Notes: a model not told the origin generated them from the sequence alone. DNA of 64,000 nt from an uncultured Chitinophagales bacterium (GCA_964358705.1 CAYHPL010000012.1:39247-103246); one strand, 5' to 3'. Shown: positions 5,448-14,882, numbered from the stretch's first letter. Made by a program: numbers and translations.

Positions 5448-6146
5448 TTATTTCTGCTTTTCATCTTTTTCGACAAGACCATCGCGCAGACTTACAACGC
5501 GATGTGCGTGTTTTGCAATATCATGTTCGTGTGTAACCAGCACAATTGTATTTCCTTGAGCATGCAGTTCTTCAAACAGCGCCATAATTTCTTCGCCTGT
5601 TTTTGAATCAAGATTTCCTGTTGGTTCATCAGCAAGAATGATGGATGGTTTTGTTACCAATGCGCGCGCAATTGCAACACGCTGACGCTGCCCACCGGAA
5701 AGTTCATTCGGTTTATGATGTGCGCGGTCTGAAAGTCCGACATGTTCCAATGCTTCAAATGCTCTCTGGCGGCGGTCGGATTTACTGATGCCGCCGTATA
5801 TCAATGGCAATTCAACATTGTGCAGTGCATCGGAACGCGCAAGAAGATTAAATGTCTGAAATACAAACCCGATTTCTTTATTCCGGATTTTTGCAAGTTC
5901 ATTATCATTTAAATCGTGTACATTTTGGTTGTTGAGTTCATATTCACCTTTGGTCGGCGTATCAAGACAACCTATAATATTCATTAACGTAGATTTTCCT
6001 GAGCCCGACGGACCCATAATCGCAATGTATTCGTTTCGCTGAATGGAAACGCTTACGCCGCGCAAGGCATGCACTTCCTGCACTCCACCCATATCGTATG
6101 ATTTTGTAATATCCTGTAATCTGATAACGATGTTATTGCTGGTCAC
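5448..6146 (-). CDS. ABC transporter ATP-binding protein (MacB/LolD-type)
   Basis: Walker [13 protein letters not shown] signature [15 protein letters not shown], Walker [12 protein letters not shown]. Overlaps the upstream membrane-fusion protein (MFP) gene by 4 nt. Confidence 0.9.
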
Positions 6147-7444
6147 TTTTTTTCTCCGTTCATAATTTTTTTTTCGTTATCTACTTTCACTTTTGAGCCG
6201 CTTTCCAAATCGCGGTTTATTGCTTTGTAACTTCCTGAAACAACGGCATCGCTTTCACTTAATCCTTCAATAATTTCTATGAATGAATCATCGCTGATGC
6301 CTGAAGTTACATTTTGCATTTTCACTGTATCACCCGAAACAATAAAAACAACTTCCATTGGTTTATTATCTTCTTTTTTCTTCTTTGCAGAAGTTGCCTC
6401 TTCCATTTCCTCTTCGGAATCGCCGCCTTCTTTCATTTCACCCATTGGTTTTTTCATCCGCGATGTTACGCATTGAATCGGCACAGTGAGAATATTTGGT
6501 TTTGTATCTGTTTCAATTGTTGCTGTTGTTGACATTCCGGGGCGAAAATTTTCATCGCTTAATAAACGGATACGCACTTCAAAATTTGTTATTTCCTGTT
6601 GTGTGCCAAATCCCGATGTCTTTGCTGTGTTTGCAATTTCATACACTATGCCGTTGAATTTTTTTCCCGGAAATGCGTCAACTTCAAGCCGCGAAGTATC
6701 ACCAACGGTAATGGTAATTACATCTGTCTCTCCGACATCAACACGCGCTTCCATTTTCGATAAATCTGCAACGGTGAGAATATGTGTTCCCTGTGTAAAT
6801 GTGCTTCCGCTGACACGTTCGCCGACTTCACTGATAAGTTCACTTATCGTTCCTGTCATCGGTGCGAACACCGTTGTTTTGTTGAGTGATTCGTGGGAAT
6901 TTTTTAGAGATGCTTCTGCTTGTTGAATTGCAAAACGCTGACTTTCATACGATGCTTTGGAAATATCCCACGCTGTTTTTGCCGCATCCAAATCCTGCGG
7001 TGAAGCGAGTTTTTTCTCAAATAATCCTTTGATGCGATTGTAATCATTTTCCGCTTTTTTGTATTGCGCTTCCTGAATCTGCAGAGATGATTTTTGTGAG
7101 TTGACCATTGCTTCCTGCTGTGTTACCTGTGCCTGATATTGGTCAGGTTTTATGCGAACAAGCAAATCACCTTTGTTCACATGGTCTCCTTCTTTCACGG
7201 CGATTTCAATAATTTCTCCGCTCACTTCTGCATTGATTTTTACCATTTTTTCCGGTTGAATTTTTCCGATTGCGGTTACAGATTGCGTTATGGTTCGTCG
7301 CTGCGCCTTTTCTGTCTGGACGATAATTTCGGGTTTTTTGTTTTTATTCATCACCCACATCGTAACGAGTCCTGCAACGACAAGTACGATAATTGACCAG
7401 ATAATAATTTTTTTCTTCGATCGTTTTTTATTGGAATTTGCCAT
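6143..7444 (-). CDS. Efflux RND/ABC periplasmic adaptor subunit (HlyD/MacA membrane fusion protein)
   Basis: 433 aa. N-terminal TM anchor, long coiled-coil segment, and C-terminal beta-barrel/lipoyl-like region typical of MFPs. Operon position between TolC and the ABC ATPase. Confidence 0.8.
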
Positions 7445-7483: not shown

Positions 7484-8836
7484 TTATTTTAAGATGCCGA
7501 TGGTATAATCAAATTGCTTCTTTGCGGCGATGTAACTGTACACTGCATTTACTTTATTGTTCACCGCAGATGTATAATTTGCATCTGCAATAAGTTTATC
7601 AAGAAGAGTTCCTGCGCCAAGGTTGTATTTTTCTTCTGCTATTCTTCTGTCTTCAATCGCGGAGCGAACTCCTGTCTGACTGACTTCAACTGACTTTCGT
7701 GCTGCGTCAACATCGAGCAATGCTTTTTGTATTTCTACACTTACCTGCCGCTCTTTTAAATGAACTGCTTCTTCTGCATTGCGAATTTCTATTGCTGCCT
7801 GCTGAATAGAATTATCAGTGCGGAAATTATTAAAAATCGGGTAAGACAAATTCAAGCCAAACGAAAGCGAACTGTAATCTGTGAGTTCGGATAATTTTCC
7901 TGCGCCGTATCCATACGAGCCATTCGCAGAAAGTGTTGGATAGCGAACTCCTTGCGTAATGGAAAGCGAAAGTCGTGCTGCGGACAAATTTTGTTTTGCG
8001 CTCAAATAATCAGCGCGTGTTGCAAGCGATTGCGATAAGAGTTGTGAAAAATTCTGTTGTTGCATTGCCGCAGATGAAAGTTCTGTGGAATCAATGCTTT
8101 TGGGAATTGAATTATCTGCAAACATATATTTTTCTTCTGCGCCCAACCCCAAATAAAAGACGAGTTCCAATTGTGCTTTATCAAATTCATTTTGTGTTTG
8201 TATCAAAAGCAATTCATCGTTGGAAACGATAACCTGCTGACGATACACATCTGCAATTGCAACACCGCCAAGCCGATTCGATTCTTCAATGCGTTTCAAT
8301 TGTTCTTTGCTGCGTGTAAGATTGTCTTTGCGAACCAGTAACAACTGTTCGTTCCGTAAAACATCTAAATACAATCGTATCGTTTGAAATGTTGTTGTTT
8401 GCTTCTGTCGCTCTAAAAGATTTTCCGAAGATGCAATTCCCGCATTTGCCTGTTCAATATTTGCATAATTTGCAAATCCATTGAAGAGAATGACATTTCC
8501 GCCAATATCTGCGGAATATGTGCGCGATGATGAAGTGCCGCCTGTTGAACCAAACGGTGTCGTTACTGTTGGCGATGTATTTGCGCGATAATTCCATCCT
8601 GCGGATGCATCCAGACTTGGATATAACGCTCCGCGTGCTACTGTTGCGCTGCTTTGCTGCGATGCTAATGAGTTCCGTGAAGTTATCATTTGTGTGTTTT
8701 TTTCAAGTGCAGAAGAAATTGCATCAGCAAGAGTAATTTTTTTCTCCTGCGCATTCATTGTTGCCGCGTCAAAAAAGAGAACTGCAAATAAAACGACGGA
8801 TAGTAAAATACAGCGTATATTTTTAAATATGTTCAT
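7484..8836 (-). CDS. TolC family outer membrane efflux protein
   Basis: 450 aa. Signal peptide plus two TolC-type repeats. First gene of the minus-strand efflux operon. Confidence 0.8.
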   Translation of the reverse strand: MNIFKNIRCILLSVVLFAVLFFDAATMNAQEKKITLADAISSALEKNTQMITSRNSLASQQSSATVARGALYPSLDASAGWNYRANTSPTVTTPFGSTGGTSSSRTYSADIGGNVILFNGFANYANIEQANAGIASSENLLERQKQTTTFQTIRLYLDVLRNEQLLLVRKDNLTRSKEQLKRIEESNRLGGVAIADVYRQQVIVSNDELLLIQTQNEFDKAQLELVFYLGLGAEEKYMFADNSIPKSIDSTELSSAAMQQQNFSQLLSQSLATRADYLSAKQNLSAARLSLSITQGVRYPTLSANGSYGYGAGKLSELTDYSSLSFGLNLSYPIFNNFRTDNSIQQAAIEIRNAEEAVHLKERQVSVEIQKALLDVDAARKSVEVSQTGVRSAIEDRRIAEEKYNLGAGTLLDKLIADANYTSAVNNKVNAVYSYIAAKKQFDYTIGILK

Positions 8837-8936: not shown

Positions 8937-10373
8937 TTAGACTGCTCGTTCGTGGAAAATTACCTCATCTTTCACCGTTAAAAGAAAACGCAATGCCGCA
9001 TCGTGATCATTTGGGATTCTTCCTTCAAGAATTTCCTCTTCTATCAACATTTTAAGTTTTCCGACAAGTTTTCCCGGTGGGATATTGCACACGCTCATTA
9101 TTTCTTCTCCCATTACGGGTGGACGCCACGCGCGCAACTGGTCGCGTTCTTCCACTTCCTTCATTTTTTCTACAACAATGTCGTAGTTATTCAGGTATTC
9201 TGCAACGCGGTCGGGATTTTGTGAAGTAATATCTGCGCGGCACAAGAGCATTAAATCATCAGTATCTTCGCCACATTCAAAAAGTAAACGGCGGATTGCG
9301 GCATCCGTAACTTCCACTTTCACCAAAACCATCGGGCGAAGATGAAGGCGCACAAGTTTTTCAACGTACGCCAAATGCTCCAGCGGCAGACGCAGTTTTT
9401 TAAAAATTCTTTTTTGCATCCGTGCACCGATTTCTTCATGTCCGTGAAATGTCCATCCGACATTTTCATCGAATGCTTTCGTGCGCGGTTTTGCAATATC
9501 GTGCATTAACGCAGTAAAACGCAGCCAGACATTTTCCGTTTGCAGCGCAATATTATCCACAACTTTCAGCGTGTGAAAAAATACATCTTTGTGATGGTAA
9601 TCTTTCCGCTGTTCCTGCCCGACCATTTGCGCAACTTCCGGAAAAATTATTTCGAGAAGTTTCGTTTTAAGAAGCAGGCGCAAACCCACAGATGGTTTTG
9701 GCGATGCAAGAATTTTAAAAAATTCATCCGTAATTCTTTCCTGCGAAATGATACTGATACGTTCGCGCATCGCACAAATCGCTTCGAATGTATTCTCTTC
9801 GATGGCAAATTGTAATTCCGAAGCAAAACGGATTGCGCGCATCATCCGCAATGGGTCGTCGCTGAATGTTGCAGATGGTTCCAGCGGCGTACGGAGAATT
9901 TTTCTTTCAATATCATCACGTCCCGAAAAGACATCAACAATTTCTCCGTAGTTTTCTTTATTCAATGAAACAGCAAGCGCATTAATTGTAAAATCACGTC
10001 GCGATAAATCTTCTTCAATTGTTCCGGTTTCTACCGATGGTTTTCGTGAATGTTGCTCGTACTGTTCTTTTCTTGCTCCGACAAATTCCACTTTTGATTC
10101 TTCGCCGTTCTTTTCCAACGGTAGATATACTTGCGCAGTGCCGAATTTTTCGAACGTTACAACATTCTTTTTTCGAAACACTTTGGCGACTTTCTTTGCA
10201 AATGCTACACCATCGCCCGTTACAACAATATCTATATCGAACTTACTGCGATTGCGTTTCATTATTGCATCGCGCACAAATCCGCCAACGACAAATGCTT
10301 GCACGCTTTCTTTATCAGCAATTTCGCCGATGCGTTTCAGTAATGGAGTGTTGGAGAGTTGGAGTTTTTTCAC
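8937..10373 (-). CDS. cca: CCA tRNA nucleotidyltransferase / poly(A) polymerase family with HD domain
   Basis: GGFVRDAIM (GGxVRD) polymerase-beta head motif near the N-terminus. HD domain with a central YHHKDVFFHTL motif. Confidence 0.75.
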   Translation of the reverse strand: MKKLQLSNTPLLKRIGEIADKESVQAFVVGGFVRDAIMKRNRSKFDIDIVVTGDGVAFAKKVAKVFRKKNVVTFEKFGTAQVYLPLEKNGEESKVEFVGARKEQYEQHSRKPSVETGTIEEDLSRRDFTINALAVSLNKENYGEIVDVFSGRDDIERKILRTPLEPSATFSDDPLRMMRAIRFASELQFAIEENTFEAICAMRERISIISQERITDEFFKILASPKPSVGLRLLLKTKLLEIIFPEVAQMVGQEQRKDYHHKDVFFHTLKVVDNIALQTENVWLRFTALMHDIAKPRTKAFDENVGWTFHGHEEIGARMQKRIFKKLRLPLEHLAYVEKLVRLHLRPMVLVKVEVTDAAIRRLLFECGEDTDDLMLLCRADITSQNPDRVAEYLNNYDIVVEKMKEVEERDQLRAWRPPVMGEEIMSVCNIPPGKLVGKLKMLIEEEILEGRIPNDHDAALRFLLTVKDEVIFHERAV

Positions 10374-10399
10374 TTGAAATTGTTTGGATTATTGAAAAA

Positions 10400-10705
10400 T
10401 CATTTGTCTTTGTTTAAAACCAATCTTCTAAGATGTTCATCAAAAGAAACTTTGTTCATTAATTTTTTGACGACCTCTCCATGTTTTTCAGTTAAATCTT
10501 TTTCTTCGACACTCCAATCAACAACTGATAAAATCTTTTCTGATTCATTGATTATATCCGTTGTTCTATGAACTGGTGCAGATGTAAAACCGACAATCAT
10601 AGTTTCAGATGGTTGATGCATTATCATTAAATATCTATCAGAACCGAAACTATTGACGAGATAATAAATTCCCTTAATCCTTGATTTTTTTATGATGGTT
10701 TTCAT
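10400..10705 (-). CDS. Hypothetical protein
   Basis: 101 aa ORF directly downstream of the RM gene fragments. It is in the same reading frame as ORF 10709-11488 and separated from it by a single TAA. Confidence 0.3.
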   Translation of the reverse strand: MKTIIKKSRIKGIYYLVNSFGSDRYLMIMHQPSETMIVGFTSAPVHRTTDIINESEKILSVVDWSVEEKDLTEKHGEVVKKLMNKVSFDEHLRRLVLNKDK

Positions 10706-10708
10706 GTC

Positions 10709-11488
10709 TTATTTATAAGGAATTAAATCTTTCTCAACTTTTTGAAATACTGTATCAATTTTTTTCTGCAGTGGAATCGTTAATGTAATCGCCGCAACGA
10801 TTTTGCAATACGTTGACGAATCATTCATCTCTCTTCCTTTTCTCCAATCCAAATATCGTTTCAATATTTGATAACCTCCGATGTGATATTCCCAAACGAA
10901 TTTTGAAATGCCTTCAAAGTATTGTGTATTGTTGATATAAATGCGTTTCGATTTTTCATCGTATATTATTTTTTCGATGACGTTACTTCCTTTGCCAAAA
11001 TACTTGACGATGTGTTTCGATTCTACTTTGTCGAAATGCAAATGCAATTCCGTAAGTTCTTCTCCCAACTCAGCCATTTGCAAAAATACTTTGTAATCAT
11101 TGGTGAATGGAATTCGCGGGAAATCTATTTTCAAAAACTCTGCATATTTTTCTCTGTAAATATTACTATACAACACACCATACACGTAGTATAAAATTTG
11201 TTCGGGTGTAATTTTTTCCTTGTCAGTTTTTTCTAATTGCTCAAATACAATAGGAGCAATGTTTGGTACTTTATCTCTTTGTGAACCGTATGTCGGCAAT
11301 GGTTCAAAGAGCATTATTATATTATAATTTTTACGCTTTTTTTCTTCCGAAGGTTTATAAACATAAAGAGGAAAAAGAAGTTCACCACCACGATAGAATA
11401 AGTTGAAATCTATTATCTTTTCAGACACGAAAGCCAAATTCCAGAACATTTCTTGACCAACGACTTGACCTTGTCTTCCAATTGTCAA
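10709..11488 (-). pseudogene. C-terminal (target-recognition/helical) portion of an MmeI-like Type IIL/IIG restriction-modification enzyme. Separated from the upstream part by a frameshift.
   Basis: Contains the C-terminal ...VWEYHIGGYQILKRYLDWRKGREM motif recalled from MmeI/PglX-family enzymes. Begins with TTG overlapping the TGA of the upstream ORF (TTGA). An A7 tract sits at the junction. Confidence 0.5.
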
Positions 11489-13866
11489 ACCGATGTTTTT
11501 TTCAACATATGTTGCATTGTGTCATATATAGGTCGCTCTATAACCCATTTTGAATAGTAAATATGTCTTACGTCAAAAGGGCGATACAATATCTCTTTGA
11601 AATGTTCTTCCCACTCTGTTCCTTGTGATAATTCTTTTCTAAATTTATTCAATTTGAATGTCGATGTATCTTTCAAGCGATACGCACTTCTGATAAAATC
11701 ATCGTCCAATCTTTTCACGTCTCTAAATTGGCTGATTCGAGTCTTGAGCTTTTCAAGGTCAATATCAATCGCGAAATGATCGCGTGCAGTAACTATTCCA
11801 ACATTGTTTACAGGGAAAATTTCATTTACCTTCATCCATTTATTGTAATGCTCAATCTCTTTTGTATCTCGCTGAATGAAAAAATACCAAGGTGTTTCCG
11901 GTTTTAGTTTCTCATAATTCTTTACCTTCAAACTATGTTTATTAAGCCAATCGTATTTTTCTTCCCGCAATCCGAATAAATCAGTGTGAAATATTTTGCA
12001 ACCGATTTCATTTTCCTTTTTTACACAAATCGCAATTGCAGTTCCTTGTCGTATATCAAAAACATTTTCGTCTTTACTTCCGTCGGGTGCAGTTTCTTTT
12101 TTCAAACTGTTGCCATGCAAATCAAGAATGTAAATTTCGTTGAACGTATTCATCAAACTTTGTCTCATCCCGCGAAACGTAGGATTGTCGAGATAACTGT
12201 GATTCGTAATCATTCCCACAATTCCTTTTCCCGCTTTCTGAATTTTCCATTGCGCGAAGCGAAGAAATTTTACATAGTCGTCTTGCAACCAAAGTTTCTT
12301 TTCCCCGAGCGACTCGCCGTTCACTTTGTAAAAACTCAACGCACCATCCAAATCTTCTTTCAATAAATTTTTCGTCCAACCATTCATGTTTGCAGAAATT
12401 CCCGAATACGGCGGATTGCCAACAATAACGAGAATCGGTTCTTTCTTTTTCAGATTTCCCGCAAGATGACTTTCTTCGCTCAACGATTCCAGCCCCGGTA
12501 TTGACGATTGACTTAAATCTACAACATCGAGCGTGTTGGTAAGATACAGTTTGAAACGCTCATCATCTTTCATTTTGTAGCCGAGTTCTTCAAGTAAAAA
12601 ACTGATTTTGATATGACCGATTGCATACGGAGCCATCATTAACTCAAAGGAATAAAAATTTTTGAGAATATGATTACTGATGAATTTATGCAAACCACCA
12701 TCACCATACTTATCGGTAAATTCTTTCACGGCAAGTTTAATCGCTTCTGCTGGAAAAGTGAGCGTTCCACCGGCAGGGTCAAGCAACGTAACTTCTTTGG
12801 AAGCAAGTCCATCTGCCAAATCAAAATGCGTTTGTAAAAGTTGATGAACGGAACGAACAATGTACCGCACAACGGGTTCGGGAGTATAATACACGCCGCG
12901 CTTCTCTCTTGTTTTCGGGTCGTACACATTGAGAAACGTTTCGTAAAAATGCACTATCGGGTCTTCACCTTTTCCTTTTGTAAAGTATTGATGGAGAATA
13001 GTTTTTACATCCGCAACGTTCAGCACTTCGGCAATGTCATCAATAATCACTTCCATTTGTTTCGGAAGATTGCCGAGTGAAATAAATTGAAACACGTCAC
13101 GCAAAATTCCTATTGTTTGTGGAATTAAATCGAAAGCAAGTTTTCTGCTAAATCCATTTACGCTTCGTGTTCGCGCGGCAAATAATCCGTATGTAACCGT
13201 TTGCGAATAAATATCCGCGAAATCATTTTTGTTCAGATTTGCAATCAGATATTTTTTGAACGCATCGAAGAAACCGAACAATCTTCCGTGTCCTTTTTGC
13301 TCTTCTTCGAGTTCAATCGTGATGACTTCATCGCGGAGAAAACGAGTTCGCTTTGCAAGTTCAACAGCGAGATGTTCGGCAGTAAAAACTTTCGGGAGAG
13401 AAAACGAGAAAAATTTTTCAAGTAGTGAAAGAAATTTTTCTTCGTTTTCAATCGGTGGAATTGTTTGTAATTTTTTTGCAATAAACGGACGAGCGATTTG
13501 TGCTCTATCAATACACTCACCATTACGATACAAACGGAACTCGTAAAAATTAGTGAGGATGAGATTAGGAAATATTTCTCGATAACGTTTGAGTTGTTCT
13601 GTTGTTTCTGTTTGGTCGAGATTTTTATCGGGAGTTTTCGCTTCGATATATCCAACAATACTTTGCTTGCCATCCCAAATTCTGAAATCCGGATTTCCCG
13701 CTTCTGTCTTTTTCGGAAGTGTAGTAATTTCGATTTGTTTTCTTCTTACTGACGAAGCAAAATTTTCAATGAACGTAGATAGAAATTGATAATAACTTTC
13801 TTCCCGCGCATCTCCACGTGCAGTAGTTTCGGAAATTCTATGTAAATATTCTTTTAACAATGACAA
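11485..13866 (-). CDS. MmeI-like Type IIL/IIG restriction-modification enzyme, N-terminal part: PD-ExK nuclease domain plus gamma-class N6-adenine DNA methyltransferase
   Basis: N-terminal NPDFRIWDGKQSIVGYIEAKTPD (PD...EAK nuclease motif as in MmeI). GVYYTPEPVVRYIV (motif X/I region). LDPAGGTLTF (SAM binding). VGNPPYSG (motif IV, NPPY). 793 aa, ends at the A7 tract. Confidence 0.7.
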   Translation of the reverse strand: MSLLKEYLHRISETTARGDAREESYYQFLSTFIENFASSVRRKQIEITTLPKKTEAGNPDFRIWDGKQSIVGYIEAKTPDKNLDQTETTEQLKRYREIFPNLILTNFYEFRLYRNGECIDRAQIARPFIAKKLQTIPPIENEEKFLSLLEKFFSFSLPKVFTAEHLAVELAKRTRFLRDEVITIELEEEQKGHGRLFGFFDAFKKYLIANLNKNDFADIYSQTVTYGLFAARTRSVNGFSRKLAFDLIPQTIGILRDVFQFISLGNLPKQMEVIIDDIAEVLNVADVKTILHQYFTKGKGEDPIVHFYETFLNVYDPKTREKRGVYYTPEPVVRYIVRSVHQLLQTHFDLADGLASKEVTLLDPAGGTLTFPAEAIKLAVKEFTDKYGDGGLHKFISNHILKNFYSFELMMAPYAIGHIKISFLLEELGYKMKDDERFKLYLTNTLDVVDLSQSSIPGLESLSEESHLAGNLKKKEPILVIVGNPPYSGISANMNGWTKNLLKEDLDGALSFYKVNGESLGEKKLWLQDDYVKFLRFAQWKIQKAGKGIVGMITNHSYLDNPTFRGMRQSLMNTFNEIYILDLHGNSLKKETAPDGSKDENVFDIRQGTAIAICVKKENEIGCKIFHTDLFGLREEKYDWLNKHSLKVKNYEKLKPETPWYFFIQRDTKEIEHYNKWMKVNEIFPVNNVGIVTARDHFAIDIDLEKLKTRISQFRDVKRLDDDFIRSAYRLKDTSTFKLNKFRKELSQGTEWEEHFKEILYRPFDVRHIYYSKWVIERPIYDTMQHMLKKTSV

Positions 13867-13880
13867 ATTACCAATTACTA

Positions 13881-14882
13881 CTAACTCTTCACGTATTTTT
13901 GTCTTTCAATTCTCACAAGTATTTCACTCGCAACTTCCAGCGCTTGCTTTCCTTCTTCTGCTGTAACTCTGGGCGTTGTATTTTCCTGAATACATCGGAT
14001 AAATTCTTCCAACTCGTATTTGAGCGGATTTATTTGCTGAATAGATGGCTGCTCAAACACAATATTACGCTTCACTGTTCCTTTATCTATTGCGCCGAGC
14101 ATCATCATCCGCGATTCCATCGGTATTTGTTCATCAAGCAATCGAAATACTTCCGCGCTTCCTTCCAAAAAATCCACGCCAATGTATGCATCTGATTGAA
14201 ACATTCTCATCTTGCGCATTTTCTTTTGTGAAATTCTGCTCGCGGTAACATTCGCAACACATCCGTTCGTAAATGTTATTCGCGCATTGGCAATATCCAC
14301 AGAATCGGAAACAACAGCGACACCATTCGCATCAATTTGCGCAACGGGAGATTGCACCAAACTTAAAATTATATCAATGTCGTGAATCATTAAATCAAGA
14401 ACGACTGCAACATCGGCACCACGTGGAGTAAACTGCGCAAGACGATGTGCTTCAATAAACATCGGCTGAAGATTATATTGTTCAATTGCAAGCAATGCGG
14501 GGTTGAATCGCTCGATATGTCCCACTTGAATTTTACAATTATTTTTTTGTGCAAGCACAATCAATTCTTCCGCTTCATTTGGTGTTGTCGTAATCGGTTT
14601 TTCGATGAAACAGTGAATTCCTTTTTTCAACGCAAGTTTTGCAATTTCAAAATGGAAACGTGTGTTTGCTGCAATTGTTACTGCATTTACATTTTCCAAT
14701 AAATTTTCTACGGAAGAAAATGATTGCACATTATACTTCGTTGCAATCTCATTGCGCTTTTGCTCATCCACATCATATACGCCAATAAAATTTGCGGAAG
14801 AAATTTCCGCGAGCATTTTTGCGTGTAATGAACCAAGATGTCCAACGCCGATTACTGCAATATTTGTTTTCATTTCTCTCAT
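13881..14882 (-). CDS. Gfo/Idh/MocA family NAD(P)-dependent oxidoreductase
   Basis: N-terminal Rossmann IAVIGVGHLGSLHAKM. 333 aa. Confidence 0.75.
   Translation of the reverse strand: MREMKTNIAVIGVGHLGSLHAKMLAEISSANFIGVYDVDEQKRNEIATKYNVQSFSSVENLLENVNAVTIAANTRFHFEIAKLALKKGIHCFIEKPITTTPNEAEELIVLAQKNNCKIQVGHIERFNPALLAIEQYNLQPMFIEAHRLAQFTPRGADVAVVLDLMIHDIDIILSLVQSPVAQIDANGVAVVSDSVDIANARITFTNGCVANVTASRISQKKMRKMRMFQSDAYIGVDFLEGSAEVFRLLDEQIPMESRMMMLGAIDKGTVKRNIVFEQPSIQQINPLKYELEEFIRCIQENTTPRVTAEEGKQALEVASEILVRIERQKYVKS

Follow-up and report, generated by a model that had tools for sequence, protein, structure and literature searches.

DrdV is a Type IIL enzyme of restriction–modification (RM) that consists of one chain of 1029 amino acids, closely resembles LlaGI and LlaBIII in its methyltransferase and recognition domains, and lacks a translocase (bioRxiv 10.1101/2021.01.06.425610). 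Its chain (PDB 7LO5/7LVV; the enzyme recognises CATGNAC) runs from a PD-ExK nuclease through a helical connector and an N6-adenine methyltransferase to a C-terminal target recognition domain (TRD). MmeI (PDB 5HR4) also carries a nuclease, a gamma-type N6-adenine methyltransferase and a TRD in one chain. Single-chain RM genes can be interrupted at a homopolymer in such a way that one repeat unit restores the frame, as in JHP1272/Hpy99XIV and HP1353-HP1354 of Helicobacter pylori (PMC3936762). Here we consider a gene that invites comparison with all of these, found in a 64,000-nucleotide stretch of DNA from an uncultured Chitinophagales bacterium (GCA_964358705.1, CAYHPL010000012.1:39247-103246; hereafter the window, at its full length). 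As judged from sequence, its product is a solitary Type IIL/IIG RM enzyme made as one chain and belonging to the known DrdV-like family, of which the gene is a new member, disrupted by a frameshift at a run of seven adenines (A7). The disrupted gene is probably a young pseudogene in a slot of RM turnover, revertible in principle.

The gene is present as two open reading frames (ORFs) that meet at the A7 run:

11485-13866, minus strand: ORF1, 793 amino acids, in which the nuclease, the helical connector and the gamma-type N6-adenine methyltransferase are followed by the first third of the TRD (positions 1-109 of the Pfam domain Type_ISP_C)
10709-11488, minus strand: ORF2, 259 amino acids, with the remaining TRD and the C-terminal domain (Type_ISP_C positions 127-322)
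11496-11502, minus strand: the A7 run as read on the coding strand (T7 on the plus strand), the frameshift site
11485-11521, minus strand: a stretch of 37 nucleotides in which both frames are open

Relative to ORF1, ORF2 is read in the +1 frame; it starts at a TTG that shares bases (TTGA) with the stop of ORF1, a premature TGA located 9 bases beyond the A7 run. Across the junction the coding strand reads ...CAT ATG TTG AAA AAA ACA TCG GTT TGA CAA TTG GAA.... Because both frames are open only between 11485 and 11521, any single-base repair must fall there. Insertion of one A gives an uninterrupted ORF of 1052 amino acids reading ...MQHMLKKNIGLTIGRQGQVV..., with ...MLKKNIGLTIGR... (...MLKKNIGL...) as the junction peptide in the repaired frame. 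The family consensus M-Q-H-M-L-K-x-N-[IL]-G can be regained in two ways, by A8 (K-K-N) or by a G, AAAGAAAAC (K-E-N). An initial annotation, made from the sequence of the window, had given the same ORF coordinates, differing frames and TTGA overlap, had noted the A7 run at the junction and had predicted a fusion of about 1050 amino acids upon insertion of one A, all of which holds. Its description of an AT-rich locus between cca and oxidoreductase genes is equally accurate (G+C content 0.36 for the RM gene and 0.39 for the window, with a dip to 0.32 in ORF2), as are the PD...EAK nuclease, NPPY and C-terminal family motifs that it named, each present at the positions mapped below.

Homology indicates that ORF1 and ORF2 are one gene broken by a frameshift. 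The frameshift cuts through a single Pfam domain, Type_ISP_C, and the two ORFs are thus not two normal genes. In the repaired protein the domain is one stretch (residues 682-1019, corresponding to positions 1-322 of 342, 259 bits), and the PADLOC model REase_MTase_IIG matches with 835 bits. A homologue search of a collection of 5.8 billion protein clusters returned thousands of matches; among the matches listed, almost all homologues are 1040-1070 amino acids long and align at full coverage with 64-81% identity. Alignment with intact homologues, which had been proposed as a way of locating the fusion point, is collinear and free of gaps through the junction, where the consensus is M-Q-H-M-L-K-x-N-[LI]-[GAS]-[LI] and N791 is kept in 119 of 120 homologues. 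A single chain also runs through the junction position in 82 homologous genomic loci from Bacteroidota, Ignavibacteriota, Calditrichota, Desulfobacterota, Nitrospirota, Planctomycetota, Chloroflexota and others, and a scan of GTDB genomes yielded 80 intact relatives. The initial annotation had allowed that the two ORFs might normally be separate genes, for example an RM subunit and a specificity subunit. The gene-finder ORF calls, and nothing else, speak for such an arrangement; the one Pfam domain shared between the ORFs, together with the more than 100 close homologues and the 82 loci that encode one chain of ~1045-1050 amino acids across the junction, refutes it, and we assign it a negligible probability.

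The assignment to the DrdV-like family comes from both profile and structure comparisons. A profile built from 120 sequences and searched against the PDB matches DrdV (7LO5) with E 1.5e-71 in three collinear stretches: (i) residues 2-124 with DrdV 6-128, the nuclease, including PD...GY.E.K (independent E-value 0.004); (ii) residues 305-777 with DrdV 285-764, the methyltransferase and TRD; and (iii) residues 860-1011 with DrdV 820-983, the C-terminus. LlaBIII (2.5e-66) and LlaGI (9e-57) follow. With the limit relaxed to E<=10, the profile still reaches neither MmeI (5HR4) nor BpuSI among the PDB entries. A PDB search with the N-terminal 250 amino acids as a single sequence gave nothing relevant, the DrdV nuclease match requiring the 120-sequence profile. 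An AlphaFold model computed on 120 sequences (mean predicted local distance difference test (pLDDT) score 80, predicted template modelling score 0.66) replaced an 18-sequence model with a pLDDT of 49. With Foldseek, DrdV is the best match to this model over the full length (E 3e-41, ~21% identity, ~1130 alignment columns, template modelling (TM) score 0.56-0.58), with LlaBIII and LlaGI next at ~1e-35. BpuSI (9e-11), CamA, BrxX/PglX and MmeI are far behind; MmeI ranks 40th (E 1.3e-9, TM score 0.30, 13% identity), ~30 orders of magnitude weaker than DrdV. Full-length, collinear homology to DrdV is thereby found in sequence and in fold.

The domain order of the repaired protein is that of DrdV, the lengths are similar (1052 and 1029 amino acids) and both proteins are without an ATPase domain. 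Since the window protein has domain homology to LlaGI and LlaBIII and no translocase, the published description of DrdV fits it as well. With ~21% identity, the window enzyme would belong to a different subfamily, and the window copy differs further in being frameshifted within the TRD. By analogy with DrdV (bioRxiv 10.1101/2021.01.06.425610), an intact enzyme would be expected to methylate one strand and to have its cleavage licensed by multiple sites. As an enzyme of the Type IIL/IIG kind, it would act on an asymmetric sequence and cut a fixed distance away. Among the features of a Type IIL/IIG enzyme, the nuclease and the N6-adenine methyltransferase are present and an intact TRD is missing from the sequence as it stands; because the TRD is divided between ORF1 and ORF2 and is whole only after a one-base repair, we regard the gene as a disrupted family member. 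The family is very large: at E<=1e-30 it counts 5014 representatives, each standing for a cluster at 50% identity.

MmeI and the Type ISP enzymes are less close. The gene had been called MmeI-like, and of that label the solitary Type IIL/IIG character and the MmeI-type architecture stand, whereas the relationship to MmeI itself does not: DrdV is closest, the fold match to MmeI is weak, the profile does not reach it, and none of the Pfam models MmeI_N, MmeI_hel, MmeI_Mtase, MmeI_TRD and MmeI_C matches the repaired protein even at E<=1. The Pfam models N6_Mtase and Eco57I do match. The Type ISP enzymes LlaBIII and LlaGI (PDB 4XQK, 5FFJ) have a homologous methyltransferase and TRD (Type_ISP_C), but the window protein is without their RecA-like superfamily 2 (SF2) ATPase/translocase, placed in Type ISP enzymes between nuclease and methyltransferase, and is shorter (1052 versus about 1570 amino acids). 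A Pfam search of the repaired protein for helicase and ATPase domains gave no match, and the profile match to LlaBIII begins at LlaBIII residue 789, past its ATPase. Lacking a RecA-like ATPase/translocase domain, the window enzyme could not work by translocation and collision. Several homologues (P0003, P0006, P0042, P0105 and others) carry the public labels 'predicted helicase' or 'type ISP restriction/modification enzyme' with no ATPase/helicase domain; these labels look like annotation carry-over from the name of the Type_ISP_C domain.

The motifs and sub-regions of the enzyme map to the window as follows:

13636-13692, minus strand: nuclease motif PDFRIWDGKQSIVGYIEAK (P59 D60 ... E75 A76 K77)
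12754-12783, minus strand: methyltransferase motif I, S-adenosylmethionine binding, LDPAGGTLTF (residues 362-371)
12406-12417, minus strand: methyltransferase motif IV, NPPY, N6-adenine catalytic (residues 484-487; invariant in the family)
11503-11784, minus strand: variable TRD sub-module A (residues 695-788; 41-51% identical to the syntenic homologue, which elsewhere is 90-98% identical)
11372-11488, minus strand: variable TRD sub-module B (residues 794-832; homologue identity bimodal, about 0.2 or 0.6-0.9)
10832-10888, minus strand: YHIGGYQILKRYLDWRKGR, motif of the family at the C-terminus, forming the conserved last part of Type_ISP_C

A PD-(D/E)xK endonuclease domain is predicted at the N-terminus. 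P59, D60 and A76 show no variation among the 120 homologues, and conservation of E75 and K77 is at least 90%. The motif aligns with the DrdV segment PDGTLKD...GYWESK, and predicted alpha/beta elements surround it in the AlphaFold model. The family is unusually conserved, with 55-80% identity across many phyla, and the TRD departs from this pattern: residues 695-870 are 30-51% identical to P0001, the closest homologue, compared with 86-98% for the rest of the protein. Among 119 homologues, sub-modules A and B (delimited here as residues 695-783 and 792-832) occur in all four combinations (22, 19, 36 and 42 sequences), a distribution indicating that the two assort independently, as a predicted modular shuffling of specificity determinants. 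The modular specificity of MmeI relatives resembles this variation of TRD sub-regions between members of the present family. The frameshift sits on the conserved linker (MQHML-KxN) that joins the two sub-modules.

Apart from the frameshift, the gene appears well preserved. Its dN/dS is 0.067 against the syntenic homologue over residues 1-690, and at the 332 near-invariant positions of the family (>=97% conserved) the window protein deviates at 4, ranking 23rd of 120, while the intact syntenic homologue deviates at 7. No lesion other than the frameshift is present, and the frameshift should therefore be recent. Decay to a pseudogene, one of the alternatives first listed for this locus, consequently fits best in our assessment, with the qualification that the additional inactivating lesions foreseen with it are absent (4/332 deviations), so that the decay would be very recent. 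An A7 run as such is nothing unusual in this DNA. Counting A/T runs of at least 7, the window contains 105, including 37 of at least 8, and the RM gene has 4, such runs making up ~1% of its length. What is not attributable to chance is the coincidence of the sole frame-breaking lesion with a run of this type.

In our proposed sequence of events, one base would have been lost lately in the K-x-N codons of the conserved linker inside the TRD, by either of two routes. A run of eight adenines (AAA AAA AAC) may have slipped to A7, or a G may have been deleted from an ancestral AAA GAA AAC (KEN) to give the present AAAAAAAC, the A7 run being created by this very event. KEN is common in the family and is what the syntenic relative has. 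The homopolymer may thus be the product of the deletion and not its cause, a point absent from the initial annotation, although we judge slippage from A8 to A7 somewhat likelier because of its higher rate. In ORF1 as it now stands, the stop comes once the nuclease, the methyltransferase and a third of the TRD have been encoded. As the remaining TRD and the C-terminal domain are out of frame, the enzyme should not recognise, methylate or cut its target, and since methylation and restriction would be lost together, the lesion would be harmless to the host. The broken allele is the only allele seen in the sampled groundwater population; it may mark the start of RM turnover, and we infer that the pseudogene state is effectively stable.

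Two questions to address for this reading are (i) is the frameshift real and (ii) can the A7 run, or the junction as a whole, be interpreted as functional. For the first question, further contigs were obtained from ENA assemblies of the 0.2 um fraction of Hainich groundwater well H52 (replicates R1 and R2) and, for runs ERR3858128 and ERR3858129, from Logan assemblies. Five sequences cross the junction (the window and four contigs). All of them have A7, and they represent two replicates, two runs, two assemblers and three haplotypes. The first haplotype is that of the window, to which contig L002 is identical; the second (L001 and L091) differs at 10958 and 12373, and the third (L092) at 10001 and 11639. 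Because A7 is present in all three, the frameshift is older than the single-nucleotide polymorphisms (SNPs) that separate them.

A sequencing or assembly error, the true genome having A8 or AAAGAAAAC and an intact gene, was one of the alternatives in the initial annotation. In favour of it, indel errors classically occur in homopolymers, the contigs have a low coverage of 3-5x, and a single project supplied all the data. Against this, the same A7 would have had to arise in five contigs from both replicates, both runs and both assemblers and on three SNP haplotypes, and no intact version is found in any source. There are 11 abutting or overlapping ORF pairs in the window, with no split gene among the pairs scanned against Pfam, and 23 A/T runs of at least 8 are read in frame inside its ORFs of at least 200 amino acids, with A8-A10 runs in many other genes, so the assembly does not suffer from homopolymer errors. 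We consider an error highly improbable.

For the second question, phase variation is the interpretation that the initial annotation put first, as a possibility. In this model the tract would act as a contingency switch that slips between A7 and A8 usefully often; the sampled population would be OFF, and ON revertants would be selected under phage attack. Restoration of the full 1052-amino-acid ORF by gain of one repeat unit, the lack of a second lesion and the integrity of all catalytic motifs are in keeping with such a switch, and the 3-5x coverage leaves room for minority A8 alleles. The tract itself is a poor candidate. A7 or A8 is shorter than efficient tracts: the customary poly-A/T cut-off is at least 10 (PhasomeIt, PMC6321876), and the switching repeats of H. 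pylori are 'long (>8 bp)' (PMC3936762). Nor is it conserved. The syntenic intact homologue reads AAAGAAAAT at this place, that is AAA GAA AAT (KEN); of the 82 intact loci, 80 have A runs of at most 2-5 at the site and the other two have one of 7, a run of at least 8 being found in none; and residue 790 across the 120 homologues is D (42), E (36), P, G or N, with K in only 5.

The length of the tract is also invariant as far as it can be followed, A7 being present throughout the five contigs and three haplotypes, with the frameshift predating the SNPs of the latter. No ON (intact) allele of the window gene was found above 81% identity among the 5.8 billion clusters, and two pattern scans of Joint Genome Institute (JGI) metagenome contigs for the allele with any tract length found no copy; contig L085, the sole JGI pattern match, was dismissed as a chance match. 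The 23 in-frame A/T runs of at least 8 in other ORFs also indicate that such runs are stable in this genome. Compared with the Type IIG genes of H. pylori and the poly-G genes of Campylobacter, whose tracts are long, mostly C/G, conserved and length-polymorphic and for which ON and OFF alleles have been seen, the A7 run of the window gene is lineage-specific and monomorphic, with no ON allele on record. Among the properties of a phase-variable gene, restoration of the frame is thus found here, whereas adequate tract length, length variation (for which the 3-5x coverage limits power) and conservation among orthologues are not. We conclude that a contingency switch is unlikely and that the A7 tract is not an evolved switch, although an occasional slip from A7 to A8 could restore the gene.

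It is also conceivable that the gene is still expressed as it stands, either by recoding, through a -1 ribosomal frameshift (G AAA AAA A) or transcriptional slippage on A7, or as an enzyme of two chains split at the linker, with ORF1 and ORF2 coupled through TTGA. A -1 slip on the Lys codons would give exactly ...MLKKNIGL..., the stop-start overlap and an A-rich stretch upstream of the ORF2 start would suit coupled translation, and the break falls on a conserved linker between two independently assorting sub-modules. The signals that usually accompany recoding are lacking, however: G AAA AAA departs from the canonical heptamer X XXY YYZ, folding of the RNA around the tract shows no structure downstream (fold z-score -0.17) and no stimulator resembling a Shine–Dalgarno sequence is visible upstream. 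Transcriptional slippage usually needs at least nine A's to reach an appreciable level, and there are seven here, which counts against it too. Because the listed homologues are single ORFs, except for the ORF1 fragment of this locus itself, recoding is not characteristic of the family, and nor is a split form. Programmed -1 frameshifting was set aside on the grounds of the non-canonical heptamer, the missing structure and the single-ORF homologues, and continued expression by any of these routes appears very unlikely.

Several points weigh against the pseudogene reading and should be set beside the evidence for it. A single clean homopolymer lesion with all motifs intact is also what would be expected of an OFF-phase allele, and ON/OFF and specificity switching of Type IIG enzymes through homopolymers is documented in H. 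pylori (PMC3936762), so that the premise of the initial annotation, that homopolymer switching of RM genes is established in other bacteria, is sound. As the contigs are covered only 3-5x and come from one well, A8 would go unseen if a minority of the population carried it. Of the four SNPs (10001, 10958, 11639 and 12373), three fall in the RM gene (T498 synonymous, R743I and D970E; the fourth is synonymous in cca), an excess that suggests relaxed selection but is not significant (P about 0.1). The predicted inactivity of the ORF1 product, finally, is reasoned by analogy from the structures of DrdV and the Type ISP enzymes.

The surroundings of the gene provide the setting for its turnover. 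Its neighbours on the minus strand are:

8937-10373, minus strand: cca, encoding a tRNA nucleotidyltransferase that has an HD domain; it bounds the variable slot on the downstream side
10400-10705, minus strand: orphan ORF of 101 amino acids between the RM gene and cca
13881-14882, minus strand: GFO/IDH/MocA oxidoreductase gene, preceded by a HAD hydrolase gene; upstream border of the variable slot

The contents of the slot between the MocA-type gene and cca differ among related loci:

window 10373-13881: MocA, 14 nucleotides, frameshifted RM gene, orphan 101-amino-acid ORF, cca
L003 4850-9131: MocA, DUF1801, DUF4256, intact DrdV-like RM gene, cca
L086 3920-7001 (cca 80% identical): MocA, HinP1I-type restriction endonuclease, N6_N4 methyltransferase, DUF1801, DUF4256, cca
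L088 3383-7001 (cca 76% identical): no RM gene in the slot

The closest homologue (P0001, 81% identity, 1049 amino acids, intact) occupies the same slot upstream of cca in a different micro-position. On gene content, the MocA-cca slot is a small RM-turnover hotspot in this lineage. Window positions 10728-13876 align with L003 5985-9130, the RM DNA being 85.5-86.3% identical, compared with 72-74% for cca, the MocA-type gene and the HAD gene, and the block of high identity extends from 10 nucleotides before the RM start codon to ~20 nucleotides before the RM stop. In the same comparison dS is 0.6-0.8 for the RM gene and 1.0-2.1 for the flanks. As the RM gene is less diverged than its flanks by both measures, the cassette was exchanged or acquired after the lineages split. 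The synteny with L003 had made an old resident gene a candidate explanation, which we rejected in view of the variable slot in L086 and L088 and the lower divergence of the gene relative to its flanks.

In L086, ~83 nucleotides of the MocA 3' end and spacer (L086 5666-5748, similar to window 13868-13950) recur directly downstream of the HinP1I-type cassette. This repeat suggests that the HinP1I-type cassette was inserted at the MocA 3' end, the point where the window RM gene begins.

Transcription probably continues through the locus to cca, given intergenic gaps of 3-26 nucleotides and no terminator that stands out; a scan of the locus for promoters and terminators gave background level only, and an Rfam search of the 64-kb window found nothing. 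None of the three ORFs (ORF1, ORF2 and the 101-amino-acid ORF) has an NCBIfam match. The 101-amino-acid ORF also has no Pfam or PADLOC match and no homologue among the 5.8 billion clusters, and it is missing from the loci of relatives that were compared. It may not be a real gene; its membership of the RM unit is at best a candidate assignment, and a role as RM accessory gene was dropped for want of a family match or homologue.

Two observations concern other parts of the window. At 6143-6176, runs of A9 and A7 lie in the overlap of an HlyD-type gene and an ABC-transporter gene, both intact. Two contigs from replicate R2, produced by two assemblers (L001 at 11280-11320 and L091 at its 3' end), depart from the window sequence at 8581 and continue with window 5668-5705 in inverted orientation, joined through the 7-nucleotide microhomology CGCGCAA and ending 23-41 nucleotides later. 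This junction reflects either a chimera at the end of the contigs or an inversion variant of 2.9 kb in which the genes for the ABC transporter and for outer-membrane efflux are cut.

A role for the A7 run as a reversible switch that works at low frequency, or as a site of recoding or of a split into subunits, is improbable. If it had such a role, a free-living groundwater bacterium, Bacteroidota/Ignavibacteria-like according to the names attached to its cca homologues, would be keeping a costly Type IIL RM enzyme silent, to be re-awakened under phage pressure, and phase-variable RM would extend beyond host-adapted pathogens; mixtures of A7 and A8, if present in reads, would turn the locus into a case of phase-variable RM from an environmental bacterium. 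For the pseudogene that we favour, the main value of the analysis lies in correct annotation, with little importance beyond it. The annotation appropriate to the two ORFs together is a single, disrupted RM gene of DrdV-like Type IIL, and neither 'MmeI-like', 'type ISP' nor 'predicted helicase' is a correct label. The slot hotspot and the TRD sub-modules are of modest value in their own right, the latter because a Type IIL family that varies mainly in two independent TRD sub-modules could aid the prediction or engineering of specificity.

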